From the IMG/VR virus record IMGVR_UViG_3300044678_003135: a stretch of DNA of 20,000 nucleotides. The stretch is one strand, 5' to 3'. The notes beneath the pieces are model-generated. The model worked only from the letters and a program-made list of their open reading frames with translations. It had not been told where the DNA came from and searched no databases. Positions 3,687-15,695 of this stretch are shown in pieces. Source of the DNA: an uncultured virus (IMG/VR IMGVR_UViG_3300044678_003135). Its lineage: Duplodnaviria; Heunggongvirae; Uroviricota; Caudoviricetes. The translations under genes were made by a program, and so were the position numbers. The stretch's first letter is position 1, and every line of letters begins with the position of its first letter.

Positions 3687-4721
3687 TCATGGCGCGTTGC
3701 CTTGTGATGCTGCCGCGGCGTTCTTGGCCAGCTGATCAGCGGCCAGGAGCTTCGCCTCGATCTCCTGGGACCGCTCGGGGGTGATGGCCGGATCCGTCAG
3801 CTCCTGCTCAAGGGCGCGGCGATCGTCCTTGCTGATCCACCCGGGCGGAGGCCCCTGACGAACTGCGGCGGATGGGGCGCGCTGGGTGGCGCCTGCTGGG
3901 CCTGCAGCGGAACGGGAAGGTGTCGTGACCGTACGCACAGGCTGCTGCTGTGGGTCCCTGCTTTGCCTTGCCTGGCGGGGCTGTGTGTCGTTTGCTGCGT
4001 TGAAATCGTCATCCCTTTCAGCGGCAAGGCCTAGGACCATCTGCAGGGCCAACCGGCGGCAGGTGGTGAGCCCAGCGGCATGGGCCTGGCCGCGGCGATC
4101 GATTTCGCCTTCAACAGCCTCCTTGATGAAAAGGGGGACGGGGCCGCTGGAGATGCAGCCGCCGCCGGAGTGGACCAGGTAGCCAGTGACCACTGGAGTG
4201 CCGTTGTCGTCCAGCTCCTGGCGGGTGAGCGGGAACAAACCCATGGCGCCGGCGGTCTGGCCGGTGGCGATCACGCTGGCGAGATCGGCGTAGCCGTAGG
4301 AGATGGTCCCGCCTTTTTTGGTGGTGTACTCCGCCTGGCGGTTTTCGACAAGGCGCGGCTCTGTTGCGTGCCATGCTGCGAGTGCAGCGAACAGCTGCAT
4401 CTGCTGTTCGCATTCCGGTTCGTAGTTGAGGAACTCGATCAACCGCCGCCGCTGGTCGTCCTTAAAAACTTGGTCTTGGCGGCTTGTCTGGTCGTGTTGA
4501 GCCTGAGCCTCGGCCAGCACCTGGATCTCTGAGCGGAGCTGGGCAATCACGGCCGCCTGGTTGCGAATCTGCTGGTCGTGACTGCCGATCTGCTGGTTGG
4601 CGCGGTGGGCGAAGTCCTCCAGGGCCCTGTGGGAGAGCTGTGGACTGGCCGCGGCCGGCGCCCCGGAGGCAGGCGGTGGAGGCTGCGGCGATGGCGCCCC
4701 TGACTGGGTACTGGAATCCAT
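3687..4721 (-). CDS. ERF-family single-strand annealing recombination protein with N-terminal coiled coil
   Basis: LFAALAAW, SYGYADLASVI, V.GYLVHSGG.CISS and QAHAAGLTTCRRLALQMVLGLAAERDDDFN (variant of ERF GSA.TY.RRY.L....G....DDD). ATG 4721 preferred over the track start 4775. Confidence 0.85.
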   Translation of the reverse strand: MDSSTQSGAPSPQPPPPASGAPAAASPQLSHRALEDFAHRANQQIGSHDQQIRNQAAVIAQLRSEIQVLAEAQAQHDQTSRQDQVFKDDQRRRLIEFLNYEPECEQQMQLFAALAAWHATEPRLVENRQAEYTTKKGGTISYGYADLASVIATGQTAGAMGLFPLTRQELDDNGTPVVTGYLVHSGGGCISSGPVPLFIKEAVEGEIDRRGQAHAAGLTTCRRLALQMVLGLAAERDDDFNAANDTQPRQARQSRDPQQQPVRTVTTPSRSAAGPAGATQRAPSAAVRQGPPPGWISKDDRRALEQELTDPAITPERSQEIEAKLLAADQLAKNAAAASQGNAP

Positions 4722-4782
4722 TCGAGCCGTTGCGAGAGAGGTTGGTAGTGCATCGGTTACGCTGCACCGAGTCACTCACCGA

Positions 4783-4791
4783 ACACTAGCA
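4783..4791 (-). promoter_or_regulatory. Candidate extended -10 promoter (TGcTAGTGT) for the leftward operon
   Basis: Minus strand reads TGCTAGTGT about 60 nt upstream of the ERF ATG; nearby dyad TCGGT-N8-ACCGA (4753-4770). Confidence 0.4.
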
Positions 4792-4807
4792 CCATTGTGA
4801 CTTCGTA

Positions 4808-5086
4808 ATGTCGTCGGTTCATGCCGTCGTGAATCAAGTCCCTAACGGCCCTCCTGGCTGCGTCATGGCTACCAGCGAAGGGGTTCTCTCTGTAACAGTT
4901 CTTCATGCTACGGCCGCCGACCTTTTCTGGCGACAGCGGCAGGTGCTGACAGAAGCCTTCAGCTGCAGTGCATTGCGCCTACTGCTGATCAGGCCAGAAA
5001 ACAGCAGCGCTGAGCCGATCCAGATGGAATGGAGCCGCCCGCCGGATCCCAGGCCACTAAACGATCCACCGATCAGTCGACACTGA
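4808..5086 (+). CDS. Hypothetical protein (92 aa)
   Basis: ATG ORF filling the gap between ERF (divergent) and the repressor-like gene (convergent, 14-nt overlap). Confidence 0.55.
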   Translation: MSSVHAVVNQVPNGPPGCVMATSEGVLSVTVLHATAADLFWRQRQVLTEAFSCSALRLLLIRPENSSAEPIQMEWSRPPDPRPLNDPPISRH

Positions 5087-5996
5087 TCGCCGTTTCTGGC
5101 CCCTGCTGCTTGGCTGAGGCCTTTGCAGGCTGCTGCGTCTTTCGATCTTCCAGGCGCTGCAGCAGCACCTGGGTGGCGAGCTGCTCACCTTCTACCTGCT
5201 CAGGCCCCCAGGTTTCCGTGCCAAGCAGCACCTGCCGGAGAAACTTCTGCCGCTCAGGCTCCTTGCCTGGATAGAGCTCGACGATCTGGGCCCAGTCATC
5301 AACGATGTCCAAGCCAGCGGCGCTGGCGGCCTGGCGCAGCGTGCGGCCTGAGATGCACTCTGGAGGCCTCTGTTGCTCTGCTGCGGCCTTCTTTTTGACG
5401 AGCGGCTCTGGGGTGAGGCGACCGATGGCAATGGACAGCAGCTCTTCGGGCCCAAAAATTCCCTGCTGATCGCGCAGCACGTGCGCGCTGGCGACGCAGT
5501 CCCGGAGCCGCTCATCTGTCGGTGCCGCTTGCTTGCCAGCCTGCACGCCCGCGACCCATTCGTTCAGCCGCCCCAGCTCCAGGAAAAACGTGCTGGCCAG
5601 AATGCGGCTCTTGCGCCGCAGGAACAGGTTGAGGCCACTCGAATGCAGGCGGCTGCTCAGGCCTACATCCCGCCAACCGGCGACGTCATCTGCGGGCTCA
5701 GAAGCTGGCGTTCCGATCGCCTCCCAGACATGGCCGCGGTGGTTGACCCATTGGCCGGCTTGCAGAGGCATGCCAGCGACCCACTCCAGGATCGGTTCAG
5801 AGGATCGCGCCAGCAGGGCCAGCTCAGCAAGCCGTGAGGTGACCGCCAGGCTCCAGCCGTTGTGGTCCAGCCACTGCTCGATCAACGAGCGCAAGACCTC
5901 GCGGCCGCTTCCCTCAGTGATCAGCCAATGGCCTCGAGCAGCAGGGGTGAGGGGCTCTGACCCTGACGGCCGCGACAGTTGCTGCTGCTGATCCAT
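5073..5996 (-). CDS. Putative phage repressor-like protein (XRE-type HTH) with inserted CBM5/12-like module
   Basis: GREVLRSLIEQWLDHNGWSLAVTSRLAELA...LHSSGLNLFLRRKSRILASTFFLELGRLN resembles XRE helices 1-4; divergent from the replication operon, in the CI position. ATG 5996 chosen. Confidence 0.55.
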   Translation of the reverse strand: MDQQQQLSRPSGSEPLTPAARGHWLITEGSGREVLRSLIEQWLDHNGWSLAVTSRLAELALLARSSEPILEWVAGMPLQAGQWVNHRGHVWEAIGTPASEPADDVAGWRDVGLSSRLHSSGLNLFLRRKSRILASTFFLELGRLNEWVAGVQAGKQAAPTDERLRDCVASAHVLRDQQGIFGPEELLSIAIGRLTPEPLVKKKAAAEQQRPPECISGRTLRQAASAAGLDIVDDWAQIVELYPGKEPERQKFLRQVLLGTETWGPEQVEGEQLATQVLLQRLEDRKTQQPAKASAKQQGPETAISVD

Positions 5997-6211
5997 GGGT
6001 GCTCTGAGGCGTGAGGGCCGGCTACGGGTCCATCTGGAGCCGAACATAAGTCCTAGGCGAAATCACGCCGCCACCCTACGAAGCGCACTCGCAACAACCA
6101 CATAACGCCATGCAGCAGATGCGCGGCAACGGTGCGGAAGCAGATTTGAGACAGCACTGGTCCATACCATCTCGAATCCGCTACGGTCCAGATCTGTTGG
6201 TCGGTTTCCCG

Positions 6212-6242
6212 CAAACAACAAAGGCCCCGCCGAGGCGGAGCC
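6212..6242 (-). terminator. Intrinsic terminator-like hairpin, minus strand
   Basis: Minus RNA: GGCUCCGC-CUCG-GCGGGGCC (8-bp stem with one U-G pair) followed by UUUGUUGUUUG. Confidence 0.55.
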
Positions 6243-6375
6243 AGTGTTGCCCTTGCGGGCTGCGACCACCGGGCACGCTCCCCAGCAGGACCAATGGCCG
6301 CAACAGGGCAATCCTACTGCAACAGCCGCGATTCGCAGGCTCCAGGGAGTGGAACCATCCACTTCAGATCCTGAC

Positions 6376-7659
6376 ATGCCAACCAAAGATTTCAGCGGTG
6401 AGTTGCACCGCCCTCTGTTTGCACAGATTCCGCTCGACTTGCTGAGCAGCTGTGCACAGATAGGGCGCAGGAGGTTGGTATTCGTCTATGCCTGGCTCTG
6501 GTTTTACGCCGGCCAAGCAGATAACGCATTTCCTTCAGTACCTCGGCTCGCCCTGGAGTGCGGCATGAAGGAACGGGACATCCGCACTGCACTTTCGACC
6601 CTTCTTCATGAGGGTTGGATCATCAAAGCGGGCGCCGGACCGGGCGGGACAAACCGGTATCGGGTCCGGATGGCAACAGGCCGCAAAAAGCGAACCGCGA
6701 AACCCATTGCAGTGCAGCGCAAGTCAGCACACCCCCTCCCCCCAGAGGGGAGTCCCCCCCAGGGGCCCCCCCCTCCCCCTGGAGGGGACTCCCCTGGAAG
6801 GGGACCCCTCCCCCCAGAGGGGACTCCCCCTGGGGGGGACCCAATCAATAAACCTCTAAACGAAGAACAAGAAATCCAAGAAGGGTTAATTGATTACTCC
6901 AGTACATATATCCACCAACGCGAGGCGAAAATCGATGCCACGGCGCCAACGGTCACGACGGCCGAGCCCGTCGCGACAGCGGTCGAGATCGTGATAGCCT
7001 CAGCTCACAACGACGCTCCCCAGCGCCATGCCCAACCGGCAACCCAGCCCCCAGCTACCGCTTCAGCCCTGCCCGACTGCGCCCACCCGCACCGCCAGCT
7101 GCTGCGCGAGTGGTGGCTCAGGCGCCGCAGCAAGCACCCCGCCGCGGCCAACGAGCTCAGCGCCAAAGACATCAGGGCGATCCTCCACGCCGACGCCCTG
7201 GGGATCCTCCAGCCGTTCCTCGAACACGCCGCCGCCAGCGGCTGCAAATCCCTTGCCACCGACTACCGCCGTCGCTGCGAGCAGCTTCGCGCCGGCCCTG
7301 CAGCCGCTGAGGCCTTCGACACCCTCCGCAGCGCCTACCTGGCGGCTCCCCGTCGGGTCACCTGTCAATCTCTGCCCGCTGCCCAGAGAGAGTTTTCTGC
7401 CGTGCTGGCTGAGGGCCACACCGCCGAGCAGCTGGTAGCGGCCCTGGCCGCTGAAATCCGCGCTCAGGACCAGCAGCACGCCTCCACGGGTTTTGCCCCA
7501 TCCCTGCCTGACATGGCTCGCTGGCTGAAGGAGAGGAGGTTCGCCGCCTACCTGCAGCAGAACCAGCCCGTCGCCCCCGCCGCCTTCGAGGCCCCGATCG
7601 ATCCAGAAACCGGCGCCCCTGACCCCTTCGCCTACCACCGTCACATCACAGGCCAATGA
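6376..7659 (+). CDS. Phage replication initiator (N-terminal winged HTH, lambda O-like organisation)
   Basis: VYAWLWFYAG...AFPSVPRLALECGMKERDIRTALSTLLHEGWI...TNRYRV (HTH_36-like); low-complexity linker encoded by iterons; C-terminal F.P....WLKERRF motif. ATG 6376 preferred over 6244. Confidence 0.85.
   Translation: MPTKDFSGELHRPLFAQIPLDLLSSCAQIGRRRLVFVYAWLWFYAGQADNAFPSVPRLALECGMKERDIRTALSTLLHEGWIIKAGAGPGGTNRYRVRMATGRKKRTAKPIAVQRKSAHPLPPEGSPPQGPPPPPGGDSPGRGPLPPEGTPPGGDPINKPLNEEQEIQEGLIDYSSTYIHQREAKIDATAPTVTTAEPVATAVEIVIASAHNDAPQRHAQPATQPPATASALPDCAHPHRQLLREWWLRRRSKHPAAANELSAKDIRAILHADALGILQPFLEHAAASGCKSLATDYRRRCEQLRAGPAAAEAFDTLRSAYLAAPRRVTCQSLPAAQREFSAVLAEGHTAEQLVAALAAEIRAQDQQHASTGFAPSLPDMARWLKERRFAAYLQQNQPVAPAAFEAPIDPETGAPDPFAYHRHITGQ
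6737..6910. repeat. Probable replication origin: six 15-bp palindromic iterons plus AT-rich tract
   Basis: TCCCC-N5-GGGGA at 6737, 6774, 6790, 6809 and 6825, a degenerate copy at 6753, then an A/T-rich stretch at 6843-6910. Confidence 0.8.
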
Positions 7660-9546: not shown

Positions 9547-9814
9547 GGGAATCGTCGCCTGGCCGAGGCTGCAGCAGCCCAATCCGTTGGCCGCGGCCCG
9601 TGAGCAGCTGGACGCAGCTGTCGCCTACCTGCTGGAAGCAGCCACCGCCGAGGTGAGCGGGGATGTCCTGCTCCGCAAGGCCCTGGCCGATGGCCAGCAG
9701 ATGGAGCGCCGGCGCGTGATGGCCCTGTTGCTAGATCGCCTGGAGCAGTACCCCCGGCCCTCTGACACCCGCCGCATGCTTCTGCTCGACCTGCTGGAGG
9801 ACGTGAAGGGATGA
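9539..9814 (+). CDS. Hypothetical helical protein
   Basis: GGGAGG then ATG 9539 overlapping the upstream stop; ATGA-coupled to the next gene. Confidence 0.7.
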   Translation: MAEGIVAWPRLQQPNPLAAAREQLDAAVAYLLEAATAEVSGDVLLRKALADGQQMERRRVMALLLDRLEQYPRPSDTRRMLLLDLLEDVKG

Positions 9815-10194
9815 GATCTGGATCGTTCGATGAGCCCCAGGGTGAAGCACGTAAGTCGGCCGAGTCAGCTCAGAAGCCCCGTCTCGAGCTGGTGCCCTGG
9901 GCCGCCGTGACCGACATCGCTGAAGTGCTGACGTTCGGCGCGGCCAAGTACGAAGCGAACAACTGGTGCAGAGGCGCGCGCTGGGGCCGCTATTTCGCCG
10001 CCCTACTCCGGCATCTGTTCGCCTGGTGGCGCGGCGAAGAGCTGGATCCGGAGAGTGGGCTGAGCCACCTGGCCCATGCCGGCTGCTGCCTGATGTTCCT
10101 AATGGAGTACCGCCGCAACGGCTGGGGCACTGACGATCGCTTCAAGGTCCCTGATGCAGAGCCGTTCCAGAAGCACGATGGGGTGAAGGGATGA
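9811..10194 (+). CDS. DUF5664 family dATP/dGTP diphosphohydrolase domain protein
   Basis: KPRLELVP..A...IAEVLTFGAAKY..NNW.RG..W.RY.AALLRHL.AW..GE..DPESGLSHLAHA.CCL.FL is the family signature. Confidence 0.9.
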   Translation: MRSGSFDEPQGEARKSAESAQKPRLELVPWAAVTDIAEVLTFGAAKYEANNWCRGARWGRYFAALLRHLFAWWRGEELDPESGLSHLAHAGCCLMFLMEYRRNGWGTDDRFKVPDAEPFQKHDGVKG

Positions 10195-10718
10195 GCACCA
10201 CCACCACCCGCCTGCCCCTGGCCACCGCTGATGAAGTGGCCGCCCAGGTGCTGGAGCTGCTGAAGCCTCATTGCGAGCGGATCGACATCGCCGGCAGCAT
10301 CCGCCGCCGGCGGCCCACCATCGGCGACCTGGAGATCGTTTGCATCCCCAAGCCCTACGACCCCTCTCCCCTGTTCTGCTCTGGCATCGCCACCGTGGTG
10401 AACCAGTGGGAGAAGGTGAAAGGCGAGCTGCCCTGCCGCTACACCCAGCGGGTCCTGCCCTGGCACGGGATGAAGCTCGATCTGTTCATGCCTCACCCTG
10501 ACGGCTACGGCCTTCAGCTGGCGATCAGGACCGGTTCGGCCGATTGGTGCCGCACCGTGCTGGCACCGGCTTGGGTTCGTGCCGGCTATCGCTCTGAAGG
10601 TGGGTTGCTGCGCCGGAGCAGCGACGGGGCCATCTGCCCCACACCCACTGAAGAGGCACTGTTCCGGATGATCGGAATACCTTGGGTTGATCCCACCGCA
10701 CGGGAGGTAAGGCCATGA
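10191..10718 (+). CDS. Minimal X-family DNA polymerase / Pol-beta-like nucleotidyltransferase
   Basis: IAGSIRRRRPTIGDLEIV, KLDLF, RTGS and TEEALFRMIGIPWVDP.AR motifs; 175 aa, palm and thumb only. Confidence 0.9.
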   Translation: MSTTTTRLPLATADEVAAQVLELLKPHCERIDIAGSIRRRRPTIGDLEIVCIPKPYDPSPLFCSGIATVVNQWEKVKGELPCRYTQRVLPWHGMKLDLFMPHPDGYGLQLAIRTGSADWCRTVLAPAWVRAGYRSEGGLLRRSSDGAICPTPTEEALFRMIGIPWVDPTAREVRP

Positions 10719-10984
10719 GCCTCTGGCTGGAAAATGAACTGAGACGCCGTGCCTTTTTGACTGCAGGTCGCCGCATGGGCACGGTGCGGGCCATGGCCCT
10801 GCTCAGGCAGGATCTGGAGCGTGTCGACAACTTGGAAGAGATGCGCCGTGCGGAGATCCTGTCCCCGCGGCCTCTCCCGTCCTTCCTGGTGATCGATGAG
10901 GTGGGCCCCCCGCATTCCTCGGCCCCTGGCCCCACCCCTCGCTTTGCGCAATTGTCCTGCCTCCGGCGTCAGCGGTCCCGATGA
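10715..10984 (+). CDS. Hypothetical protein
   Basis: GGAGG plus ATGA coupling to PolX. Confidence 0.6.
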   Translation: MSLWLENELRRRAFLTAGRRMGTVRAMALLRQDLERVDNLEEMRRAEILSPRPLPSFLVIDEVGPPHSSAPGPTPRFAQLSCLRRQRSR

Positions 10985-11844
10985 GCCGGGTGACTCGGGG
11001 GGAGGGAGTGAACTGGCCACAGTCCTCGATCAACTGGGTTTTGCTGGGGATCCATCAGCAGTGGATCAACAAAGCGCCGCCCGAAGAGCTGGACTCTGAC
11101 CCGTTCGCCATCCCAGACGATCTTTCGGCAGAAGTAGACGGCCACCATCCGCCACTGGTGTGAGGTGGCTCCCTCCCAGGCCCCCCAGCTGCTGAACGTC
11201 CTCCCCCAGCAGTTGCGCTCAGGGTCCAACGGCTCCCCAACCTGGTCCCAGACCAGCTGCATTCGGGCTGCCATCGTCGGATAGCCCATCCGTGGCAGGC
11301 CCGCTTCATGGAGCTCCCTCCTCAGCTTCAGGAAGTCCTCCAGCTTTTGCAGCCACTGCTGCTCCCGCTGCCGCTGTATCGGCGTGCGGTGCTCGCATAG
11401 CCGGACCAGCTCCGGCAGCCGCCGCTGCAGGGCCTCAAACACCGCCCGCTTGATGGCCGCGGCCTGCACCCAGCTCCGCTTGCCACTGGGCAGCCGGCAG
11501 ACCGGGCAAGACCAGCGATAGGGTTTGCCACAGGCCCCGCAACGGTCAGGCCGCTTCATCCTGCGCCCGCAGCGGCAAAGCATCAGGCCATCGAACAACT
11601 CTGGCCCGTTGGATTGGTAGTTCGCTTGTATCAGTCGCTGAGCCAGCGCCAGATCAACAGGATCAGCAATGTGCGATCCGATCTGCTTCCACCACCACCT
11701 CATCTGCCATTTGGTGAGCCCAAGTCTTTTACCTGCAGATGACCAGTGAAATCCTGACTTCATCAGGGTTTGCAGCCGTGATGCGGCATCCACGGGTGGT
11801 GTTCCGCCCGGATTGATCTCACCGCAGGATGTGCGGAAAGTCAT
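10969..11844 (-). CDS. Large serine recombinase-like C-terminal module (zinc ribbon and coiled coil) without catalytic domain
   Basis: LFDGLMLCRCGRRM...YRWSCPVC, IKRAVFEAL, a coiled coil and W..AT..QWR.....F..KIVWDG.RVRVQL; no YxRxS resolvase motif upstream. Start 11844 or 11862; the track extension to 12585 is antisense to ParB. Confidence 0.7.
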   Translation of the reverse strand: MTFRTSCGEINPGGTPPVDAASRLQTLMKSGFHWSSAGKRLGLTKWQMRWWWKQIGSHIADPVDLALAQRLIQANYQSNGPELFDGLMLCRCGRRMKRPDRCGACGKPYRWSCPVCRLPSGKRSWVQAAAIKRAVFEALQRRLPELVRLCEHRTPIQRQREQQWLQKLEDFLKLRRELHEAGLPRMGYPTMAARMQLVWDQVGEPLDPERNCWGRTFSSWGAWEGATSHQWRMVAVYFCRKIVWDGERVRVQLFGRRFVDPLLMDPQQNPVDRGLWPVHSLPPSHPAHRDR

Positions 11845-11920
11845 CGCTGTGTGATGCCGCATCAATGACTGAGTATGTACTGGTTCGGCTACGTTGTGCG
11901 ATAGCTCTGCTTCTGCACGC

Positions 11921-15471: not shown

Positions 15472-15695
15472 ACCCAGAACATCAGTACCTGATGATGCCC
15501 CTCTTCCGCCCCACAGACTGCGCGGCAGTCGGCGGGCCGACGATCAGCCGTGTCCAAGGCTGCATCAACGACGAGATGAAGGAGTGCGTGGTCTGCGGCA
15601 ATGACGCGGTGCACGATATGACCGAACACTCCTTCTTCGGTTTTCCCGGCTCCTGCCCTTATGGGCCCCCGAAAGAGGAGGAATGCGAGCCATGA
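15468..15695 (+). CDS. Small Cys-rich hypothetical protein
   Basis: GTGA overlap with the TerL stop; CVVC motif; ATGA-coupled downstream. Confidence 0.55.
   Translation: MNPEHQYLMMPLFRPTDCAAVGGPTISRVQGCINDEMKECVVCGNDAVHDMTEHSFFGFPGSCPYGPPKEEECEP

Follow-up and report, generated by a model that had tools for sequence, protein, structure and literature searches.

A CBM5/12-fold module inserted in the helix-turn-helix turn of a putative phage repressor

The reverse-strand gene at 5073-5996 of an uncultured caudovirus contig (IMG/VR IMGVR_UViG_3300044678_003135; the 20,000 nucleotides analysed are referred to as the window) encodes a protein, P0001, in which a first-pass annotation had seen a repressor-like helix-turn-helix (HTH) split by a carbohydrate-binding module. 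The locus raises the questions of whether this split is real and what a chitin-binding fold would do inside a DNA-binding domain. The peptide quoted in that annotation corresponds to P0001 residues 72-112 (5661-5783). Coordinates of all features are given in Table 1.

Table 1. Features of the regulator locus and its surroundings (positions in the window).
Feature	Position	Strand	Remarks
ERF-like single-strand annealing protein, downstream of regulator	3687..4775	-	PF04404 E=8.4e-6; likely ATG 4721
Second LexA-box-like 14-mer, between divergent ERF and 92-aa partner genes	4780..4793	-	
Conserved 92-aa convergent gene, overlaps regulator stop	4808..5086	+	may start at 4865
P0001 gene (307-aa XRE-fold regulator with CBM5/12-fold insert)	5073..5996	-	
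C-terminal helical domain, residues 212-288, weakly HTH-like, not S24 peptidase	5133..5363	-	
Helix 5, residues 183-193, core of predicted homodimer interface	5418..5450	-	
Predicted recognition helix (residues 119-126) and helix 4 (135-152)	5541..5651	-	
CBM5/12-fold insert, residues 67-113, helix-2/helix-3 turn	5658..5798	-	
XRE helices 1-2, residues 18-62	5811..5945	-	DSSP H18-46, H50-62; HHalign 99.9% to insert-less family
LexA-box-like 14-mer, 45-58 nt upstream of P0001 start codon	6041..6054	-	1 mismatch to RGTACNNNDGTWCB
Conserved hairpin and intrinsic terminator, antisense to replication-initiator leader	6215..6304	-	-10-like hexamer 6311-6316
Divergent replication initiator (lambda O-like)	6376..7659	+	phrog_270 E=2.4e-12

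The P0001 reading frame is a genuine gene, because 83 homologues were retrieved at E<=0.001 among 7531 candidates (identity 31-94%) and purifying selection acts on each of its six segments (dN/dS 0.075-0.166, 6 pairs pooled). For the insert the pooled value was 0.136, and for the insert core 0.097. An upstream ATG at 6047 was rejected as start codon, as it is followed by an in-frame stop in locus L015 and is out of frame in L017. Single-sequence searches of Pfam, PHROG, NCBIfam and PDB with full-length P0001 gave nothing useful, and TAL-repeat and Smr rows from the library searches were chance matches. Annotated phage records contained no match to P0001, P0086 or P0143. Atlas matches, all at 0.81, serve as leads only. 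A search for longer fused forms of the family returned none, which counts as weak evidence.

Protein folds were predicted with AlphaFold2 (P0001: mean pLDDT 84.6, pTM 0.60, residues 31-200 at 88-98 per block). In Foldseek searches with this model the top rows were chitin-binding domains, and no match reached E<=0.001. VIA-align returned 50 rows, 39 of which aligned the N-terminal helical domain (mostly XRE, cI, C-protein, HigA, ComR and POU entries; Z 5.2-7.3), while the insert accounted for 9 rows and the C-terminal domain for 2. The program marks Z below 8 as a possibly common arrangement and every structural Z of P0001 is below 8, so the case for an XRE fold rests on the consistency of the rows with one another and on the homologues. 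The flanks of the insert superposed on a Rhodococcus XRE protein (2ofy; Z 6.7, rmsd 3.2, 80/80 aligned) and on P22 c2 (2R1J; Z 5.2, rmsd 2.4, 66/66 aligned). A family member without the insert was modelled at pLDDT 94.8 and matched XRE entries (best 2ofy, Z 7.9, rmsd 2.7, 80 aligned); here, too, Foldseek gave nothing at E<=0.001. Pfam HTH_3 or HTH_31 was above cut-off in none of the 59 + 48 aligned members, nor in gp103 of phage P-SS2 or the host copy described below, and P0001 itself had no HTH Pfam match of any kind. The predicted models contain a lambda-repressor-like bundle that Pfam HTH profiles do not assign. The flanks assemble in the model into a bundle of XRE/POU type, and, as proposed in the first-pass annotation, the CBM5/12 module enters at the turn between helices 2 and 3.

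P0001 shares the five-helix HTH bundle with XRE/cI domains (P22 c2 2R1J, TP901-1 CI 6TRI, C.BclI 2B5A, Rhodococcus 2OFY), and likewise shows a helix-5-centred dimer (in the model) and a position between replication and recombination arms. Unlike these proteins, it has about 50 extra turn residues that form the CBM fold, a second insertion before helix 5, and a helical C-terminal domain without S24 peptidase, and it falls below the Pfam HTH cut-offs. The top non-CBM match was the eukaryotic POU-specific domain (Oct4 8G87, Oct1 1POU; Z 7.3, rmsd 2.8, 79 aligned), a lambda-repressor-like bundle with a lengthened HTH turn, but without a folded domain in this turn, where P0001 has one. In the region of the recognition helix, R116 is kept in 69/70 and S120 in 70/70 sequences. 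P0001 very probably binds DNA; a repeat search detected neither an operator array nor clear repeated palindromic operators.

The C-terminal helical domain is common to members with and without the insert. It resembled Aca10 in P0001 (Z 5.6) and C.Esp1396I in the insert-less model (Z 5.5), and the HTH-like fold call, read from full-length models, is a weak one. The absence of an S24 autopeptidase noted earlier was confirmed, since this part of the protein has no such Pfam match and is all-helical in the AlphaFold2 model. P0001 accordingly lacks the C-terminal S24 peptidase of autocleavable repressors such as lambda CI and LexA.

The insert alone matched Pfam CBM_5_12 (PF02839) with E=0.0088 and 16.5 bits, short of the cut-off of 26.2, and the same Pfam family was matched at E<=1 by 15/59 aligned family members. 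A profile built from 14 inserts retrieved the CBMs of a Vibrio chitin deacetylase from the PDB (E=2.5e-6), and chitin enzymes accounted for 25/26 of its PDB matches at E<=10. Residues 60-114 of the model superposed on the chitin-binding domains of chitinases (SmChiB 8yug: Z 7.4, rmsd 2.6, 49 aligned; VIA-align), in agreement with the expected CBM5/12 module. In 70 insert-bearing sequences, G81, W91 and W/F108 are invariant, H89 is kept in 67 and W83 in 44. By fold and sequence the insert is a CBM5/12 homologue. The W..G..Y motif by which it had been recognised holds at the core Trp and Gly positions but not at the Tyr, which is Leu78 in P0001 and Tyr in 10/70 relatives. The fold and the core residues W72, G81, W91 and W108 are common to P0001 and the CBM5/CBM12 domains of SmChiB, SgChiC (2D49), BcChiA1 (1ED7) and the Vibrio deacetylase (4NZ1). 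These domains sit on a secreted enzyme or a virion fibre, whereas the P0001 module lies within a cytoplasmic DNA-binding domain and is without their binding aromatics. A CBM5/12-like stretch was also found in a 1300-1640-aa protein of 4/5 related genomes (tail-fibre-like in the two scanned). The tail-fibre CBMs of these phages were not picked up by the insert profile, and no donor was found in four related genomes; the phage tail-fibre pool is a plausible source of the module.

Relatives without the insert were found by a profile search of 1.84 billion representatives, which gave 79 matches, including full-length proteins of 220-300 aa that lack it. HHalign aligned the insert-bearing and insert-less groups at 99.9% across 208 columns, interrupted by a single gap near residues 62-115. 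The spacing from helix 2 to the recognition helix was 57-70 residues in the 32 sequences with the insert and 5-10 in the 43 without it, all picked by eye with fragments and CBM-repeat matches left out. In a tree calculated without the insert columns, 31/32 insert-bearing sequences fell in one clade (support 56) and one formed a long branch outside, so that a single gain is the simplest, if tentative, reading of the tree. P0103, a divergent insert-bearing protein placed outside the insert clade, differs from the family in its recognition helix and C-terminal part. Scanning viral contigs with individual insert-less proteins gave no matches.

Among the insert-less members is gp103 of cyanophage P-SS2 (YP_003084247.1, a hypothetical protein; E=8e-48 against the insert-less profile; L107:6896-7636 = NC_013021.1 92216-92956). 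It is flanked by bet/integrase and by a divergent arm in which small genes of HTH and RHH type accompany dnaB and primase. Like P0001 it lies upstream of an annealing protein and divergent from the replication arm; unlike P0001 this uncharacterised protein has a 7-residue turn, no insert and no convergent partner gene. P-SS2 is stated by Sullivan et al. (PMC2784084) to lack an identifiable repressor, and gp103 is a candidate for it; more widely, the family may represent a lysogeny repressor so far overlooked in viruses of this kind. Other insert-less copies in mobile elements are divergent from primase (L105, L182) or co-directional and mid-operon, just before ERF/RecT (L103, L180, L181, L184, L185); the latter placement tells against a simple cI label. 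The family profile further matched 271/301 host-family genomes, mostly once, and 8/201 genomes drawn from the phylum, with insert status read from the loci examined individually. The core host copy adjoins fatty-acid desaturase gene(s), rplI and dnaB (L100:5250-5957, L106:6850-7704) and is possibly a core regulator or a domesticated phage repressor. Tracing the insert reveals an XRE-fold family, shared by picocyanobacteria and their phages, that had escaped annotation and to which a near-universal host gene belongs, and makes lysogeny control in abundant phototrophs directly testable. Distant proteins with the C-terminal helical domain of the family were seen in L177, L178 and L179 (G392), and two of them pass HTH_31.

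The insert is kept across proteins that are only about 30% identical, and a folded domain between HTH helices is an unusual design. No prior description of one within the HTH turn was found in the literature searched, coverage of which took in few subscription journals. The forms with and without insert constitute a natural experiment on its contribution.

A homodimer model of residues 18-290 scored 0.76, compared to 0.00 for the best of 3 controls, with contacts agreeing to at least 97% between runs and pLDDT of at least 84. This mark is reached by 20/30 solved homodimers and 1/23 solved monomers, and the score may reflect likeness to solved XRE dimers. The predicted interface has helices 4 and 5 at its core, in line with the helix-5 dimers of XRE/cI-like regulators, and L61, V90 and residues 111-114 pack against W24/L25 of the other chain. 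In the model, the base of the insert is thus placed on the partner subunit, which supports a structural role of the insert.

The window consists of phage DNA, with ERF, DUF2303, an O-like initiator and terminase among its genes. The replication initiator is the opposite-strand neighbour of the regulator in 28/28 loci, and ERF lies downstream of it in 26/28. Two relatives were located in contigs of Cyanobium MAGs; a third match there, in L029 (E=1e-3, 65 residues), was left out. An integrase-like gene was present in 5/5 related genomes of 57-71 kb examined, of the tyrosine type in G004 (phrog_1 E=1.5e-12) and G006 (PF00589 E=1.9e-5, under cut-off) and of the serine type in G005, G007 and G008. 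The phage, a virus of freshwater cyanobacteria, belongs to this integrase-bearing group of Cyanobium phages and is probably temperate, and the probable immunity-region position of the gene agrees with the lysogeny setting assumed at first. No cro-like gene was seen between the regulator and the replication gene, and the 29 window proteins scanned included no other cI-like gene.

A second conserved element is the convergent 92-aa gene, which starts just past the 4780-4793 box. With a profile of this gene, 116 loci were searched; it was detected in 27/28 insert-bearing loci (the L016 locus is truncated; the gene is split by a stop in L027) and around none of the insert-less members, 9 mobile-element places included. 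In L027:6838-7113 a stop codon interrupts the partner gene. The 92-aa protein has 70 homologues and no Pfam, PHROG or PDB assignment. The KilA-N proteins of G005 and G006 contain its domain internally (46.7 bits, compared to 6.4 for the best of 300 shuffles); those of G004 and G007 lack it. Antirepressor activity is common among KilA-N proteins. The co-occurrence of insert and partner gene is confined to one clade (support 56, with one insert sequence outside), so that the 92-aa gene is to be taken as a lead, and as a candidate partner or antirepressor of the regulator.

For the SOS question, the window was scanned for the cyanobacterial LexA consensus RGTACNNNDGTWCB, as given in PMC3091678. 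At <=1 mismatch, 6 matches were obtained (one site counted on both strands) compared to 2.1 expected, and 6/200 shuffles reached 6. The box at 6041-6054 occurs in 14/15 close-clade loci and that at 4780-4793 in 12/15, and neither was seen at an equivalent place in 7 distant loci. The former is identical, but for a single base, to a LexA site predicted for Cyanothece in the same source. A host matrix was built from 19 recA/lexA sites (60/67 upstream regions gave a site, 21 of them distinct, 2 off-position sites dropped). With this matrix the boxes scored 0.7 (6041-6054) and -0.6 (4780-4793), ranks 39 and 59 in the window, whereas host sites scored 13.7-18.9. Both boxes may be LexA sites or operators of the protein itself. 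The KilA-N genes (PF04383) of G004-G006 have, by eye, a LexA-like box flanked by TTGACA and the -10 region, with host-matrix scores below 8.

From the missing S24 domain an SOS-independent switch had been deduced. This does not follow, because repressors that cannot be cleaved are often inactivated by antirepressors under LexA control (PMC3121763), and LexA-box-like sites lie upstream of both regulator and ERF. The repressors of Gifsy-1, -2 and -3 described there are, like P0001, without autocleavage. P0001 phages have candidate antirepressor-type genes with LexA-like boxes of low host-matrix score, and LexA control and partner binding are here proposed by analogy with Gifsy phages. The likeness would be one of regulatory design.

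As a tentative best reading, P0001 would be a dimeric, non-cleavable, cI-like repressor of XRE fold that occupies the immunity position of a temperate Cyanobium phage. A CBM5/12-fold module would have entered the tolerant HTH turn in a single ancestor; with its hydrophobic core retained and the chitin-stacking aromatics gone, the module would have become a structural and protein-docking element, the base of which extends the dimer interface. The surface of the insert would be the likely target of an inactivating partner, either the 92-aa gene product or KilA-N proteins with the same domain, and induction would proceed via host LexA control of the partner genes, as in Gifsy-type phages. The architecture, the insertion point, the selection, the synteny and the loss of the binding aromatics are computational results, and the folds and the dimer come from models. 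Of the further parts, the repressor role is somewhat favoured, while partner binding and LexA control each come close to an even chance. The reading is weakened by the lack of a cro-like gene, the co-directional insert-less loci, the low host-matrix scores of the boxes and their absence from the distant clade. It is weakened further by structural Z values all below 8, co-occurrence in a single clade, and the lack of an identified donor and an integrated copy.

A LexA-like box upstream of the regulator itself would more readily be expected of an SOS-induced gene than of a maintenance repressor. Host LexA would then repress regulator and ERF, and after DNA damage the protein would activate or tune the replication and recombination arms. 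We consider this rather unlikely. The boxes directly upstream of both genes, the near-identity of one to the Cyanothece site, the insert-less members placed just before ERF/RecT in the same direction and the absence of a visible cro would all be accounted for, but the host-matrix scores are weak and the boxes could be operators of the protein itself. Moreover, the window proteins offer no other cI-like candidate, and placement in P-SS2, L105 and L182 is divergent and of repressor type.

The remaining readings concern the insert. CBM5s bind chitin via a consecutive exposed aromatic pair (Y-W or W-W), with two further aromatics in the core, and the affinity of intact CBM5s for soluble chitohexaose is no better than about 2 mM (PMC8449059). 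The W-Y pair of 1AIW aligns to I94-G95 of P0001; the consecutive pair was present in 0/70 insert-bearing sequences, with a single Trp there in 1/70. For CBM12, Trp687 of ChiA1 presumably maps to the H-T...W-x-P loop ahead of the last strand. The H-T loop was present in 0/70 insert-bearing sequences, and Trp687 is known as the CBM12 binding Trp from a reference title within PMC8449059. Loop 94-107, which varies in length and sequence among inserts, has no aromatic in P0001 and some aromatic in 7/70 sequences, all distant relatives. The aromatics that are kept match the positions described as core. The insert is thus homologous to the CBM5/12 fold without having either the aromatic pair of CBM5 or the loop Trp of CBM12. 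These findings give little support to the proposed sensing of a sugar or muropeptide, and a non-glycan role of the insert is likely.

That the insert binds a GlcNAc oligomer or recycled muropeptide and allosterically switches DNA binding, as an SOS-independent lysis/lysogeny decision, is consequently improbable, although its CBM5/12 homology is genuine, it is as conserved as the HTH and it touches the dimer interface in the model. H89 and W83 could form a non-canonical site, and the related fold of CBM73 is able to relocate binding aromatics (PMC8449059). With equally small likelihood, a non-canonical face of W83, H86 and H89 at the dimer interface might bind host cell-wall or other glycan and loosen the dimer, in competition with the 92-aa partner. 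If so, a lysis/lysogeny repressor of picocyanobacterial phages would re-use a virion-type glycan-binding fold as intracellular sensor, and the phage would read the envelope state directly at the HTH.

Slightly less probable still, the insert would serve as an additional wing or spacer in contact with DNA and alter operator geometry or immunity specificity. The insert adjoins the recognition helix and is followed by the near-invariant R116, and outside the CBMs the best structural match was the POU-specific domain with its long turn. Inserts of the distant clade range from neutral to basic (-2 to +4), but those of the close clade are acidic (-2 to -6; P0001: -5). Least probable is a host-takeover mimic that competes with or redirects the homologous picocyanobacterial core regulator beside the desaturase genes, since despite the near-ubiquity of that gene, the phage protein is only about 20-25% identical to the host copy, has a different recognition helix, is on a separate tree branch and is fixed in the phage control region.

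Further elements were noted in and around the intergenic regions, in neither of which a sigma-70 scan gave a promoter. The hairpin at 6215-6316(-) has a GNRA-like loop and double-sided changes in 3/35 pairs, and is a candidate small antisense RNA controlling replication; its assignment to a described antisense RNA family was dropped, as no Rfam match was obtained. Two more conserved non-coding blocks lie between the genes at 6141-6190, possibly a rightward promoter and a regulator site. Elsewhere in the window, a site identical to the cyanobacterial LexA consensus lies directly behind the terminase stop, at 15476-15489; it scores 10.6 with the host matrix, second in the window, and recurs in G004. 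Another host-matrix site, at 11619 (score 11.8), lies inside the ORF at 10972-11900(-). This ORF resembles the C-terminal half of a serine integrase (PF13408 E=0.0027) without catalytic domain; it is kept in several relatives, and its G004 copy matches phrog_95 (E=2.4e-5). At 9811-10718(+), a dATP/dGTP diphosphohydrolase gene (PF18909), the family of which occurs in modified-base phages, is located beside a PolX-thumb-like gene (PF14791).
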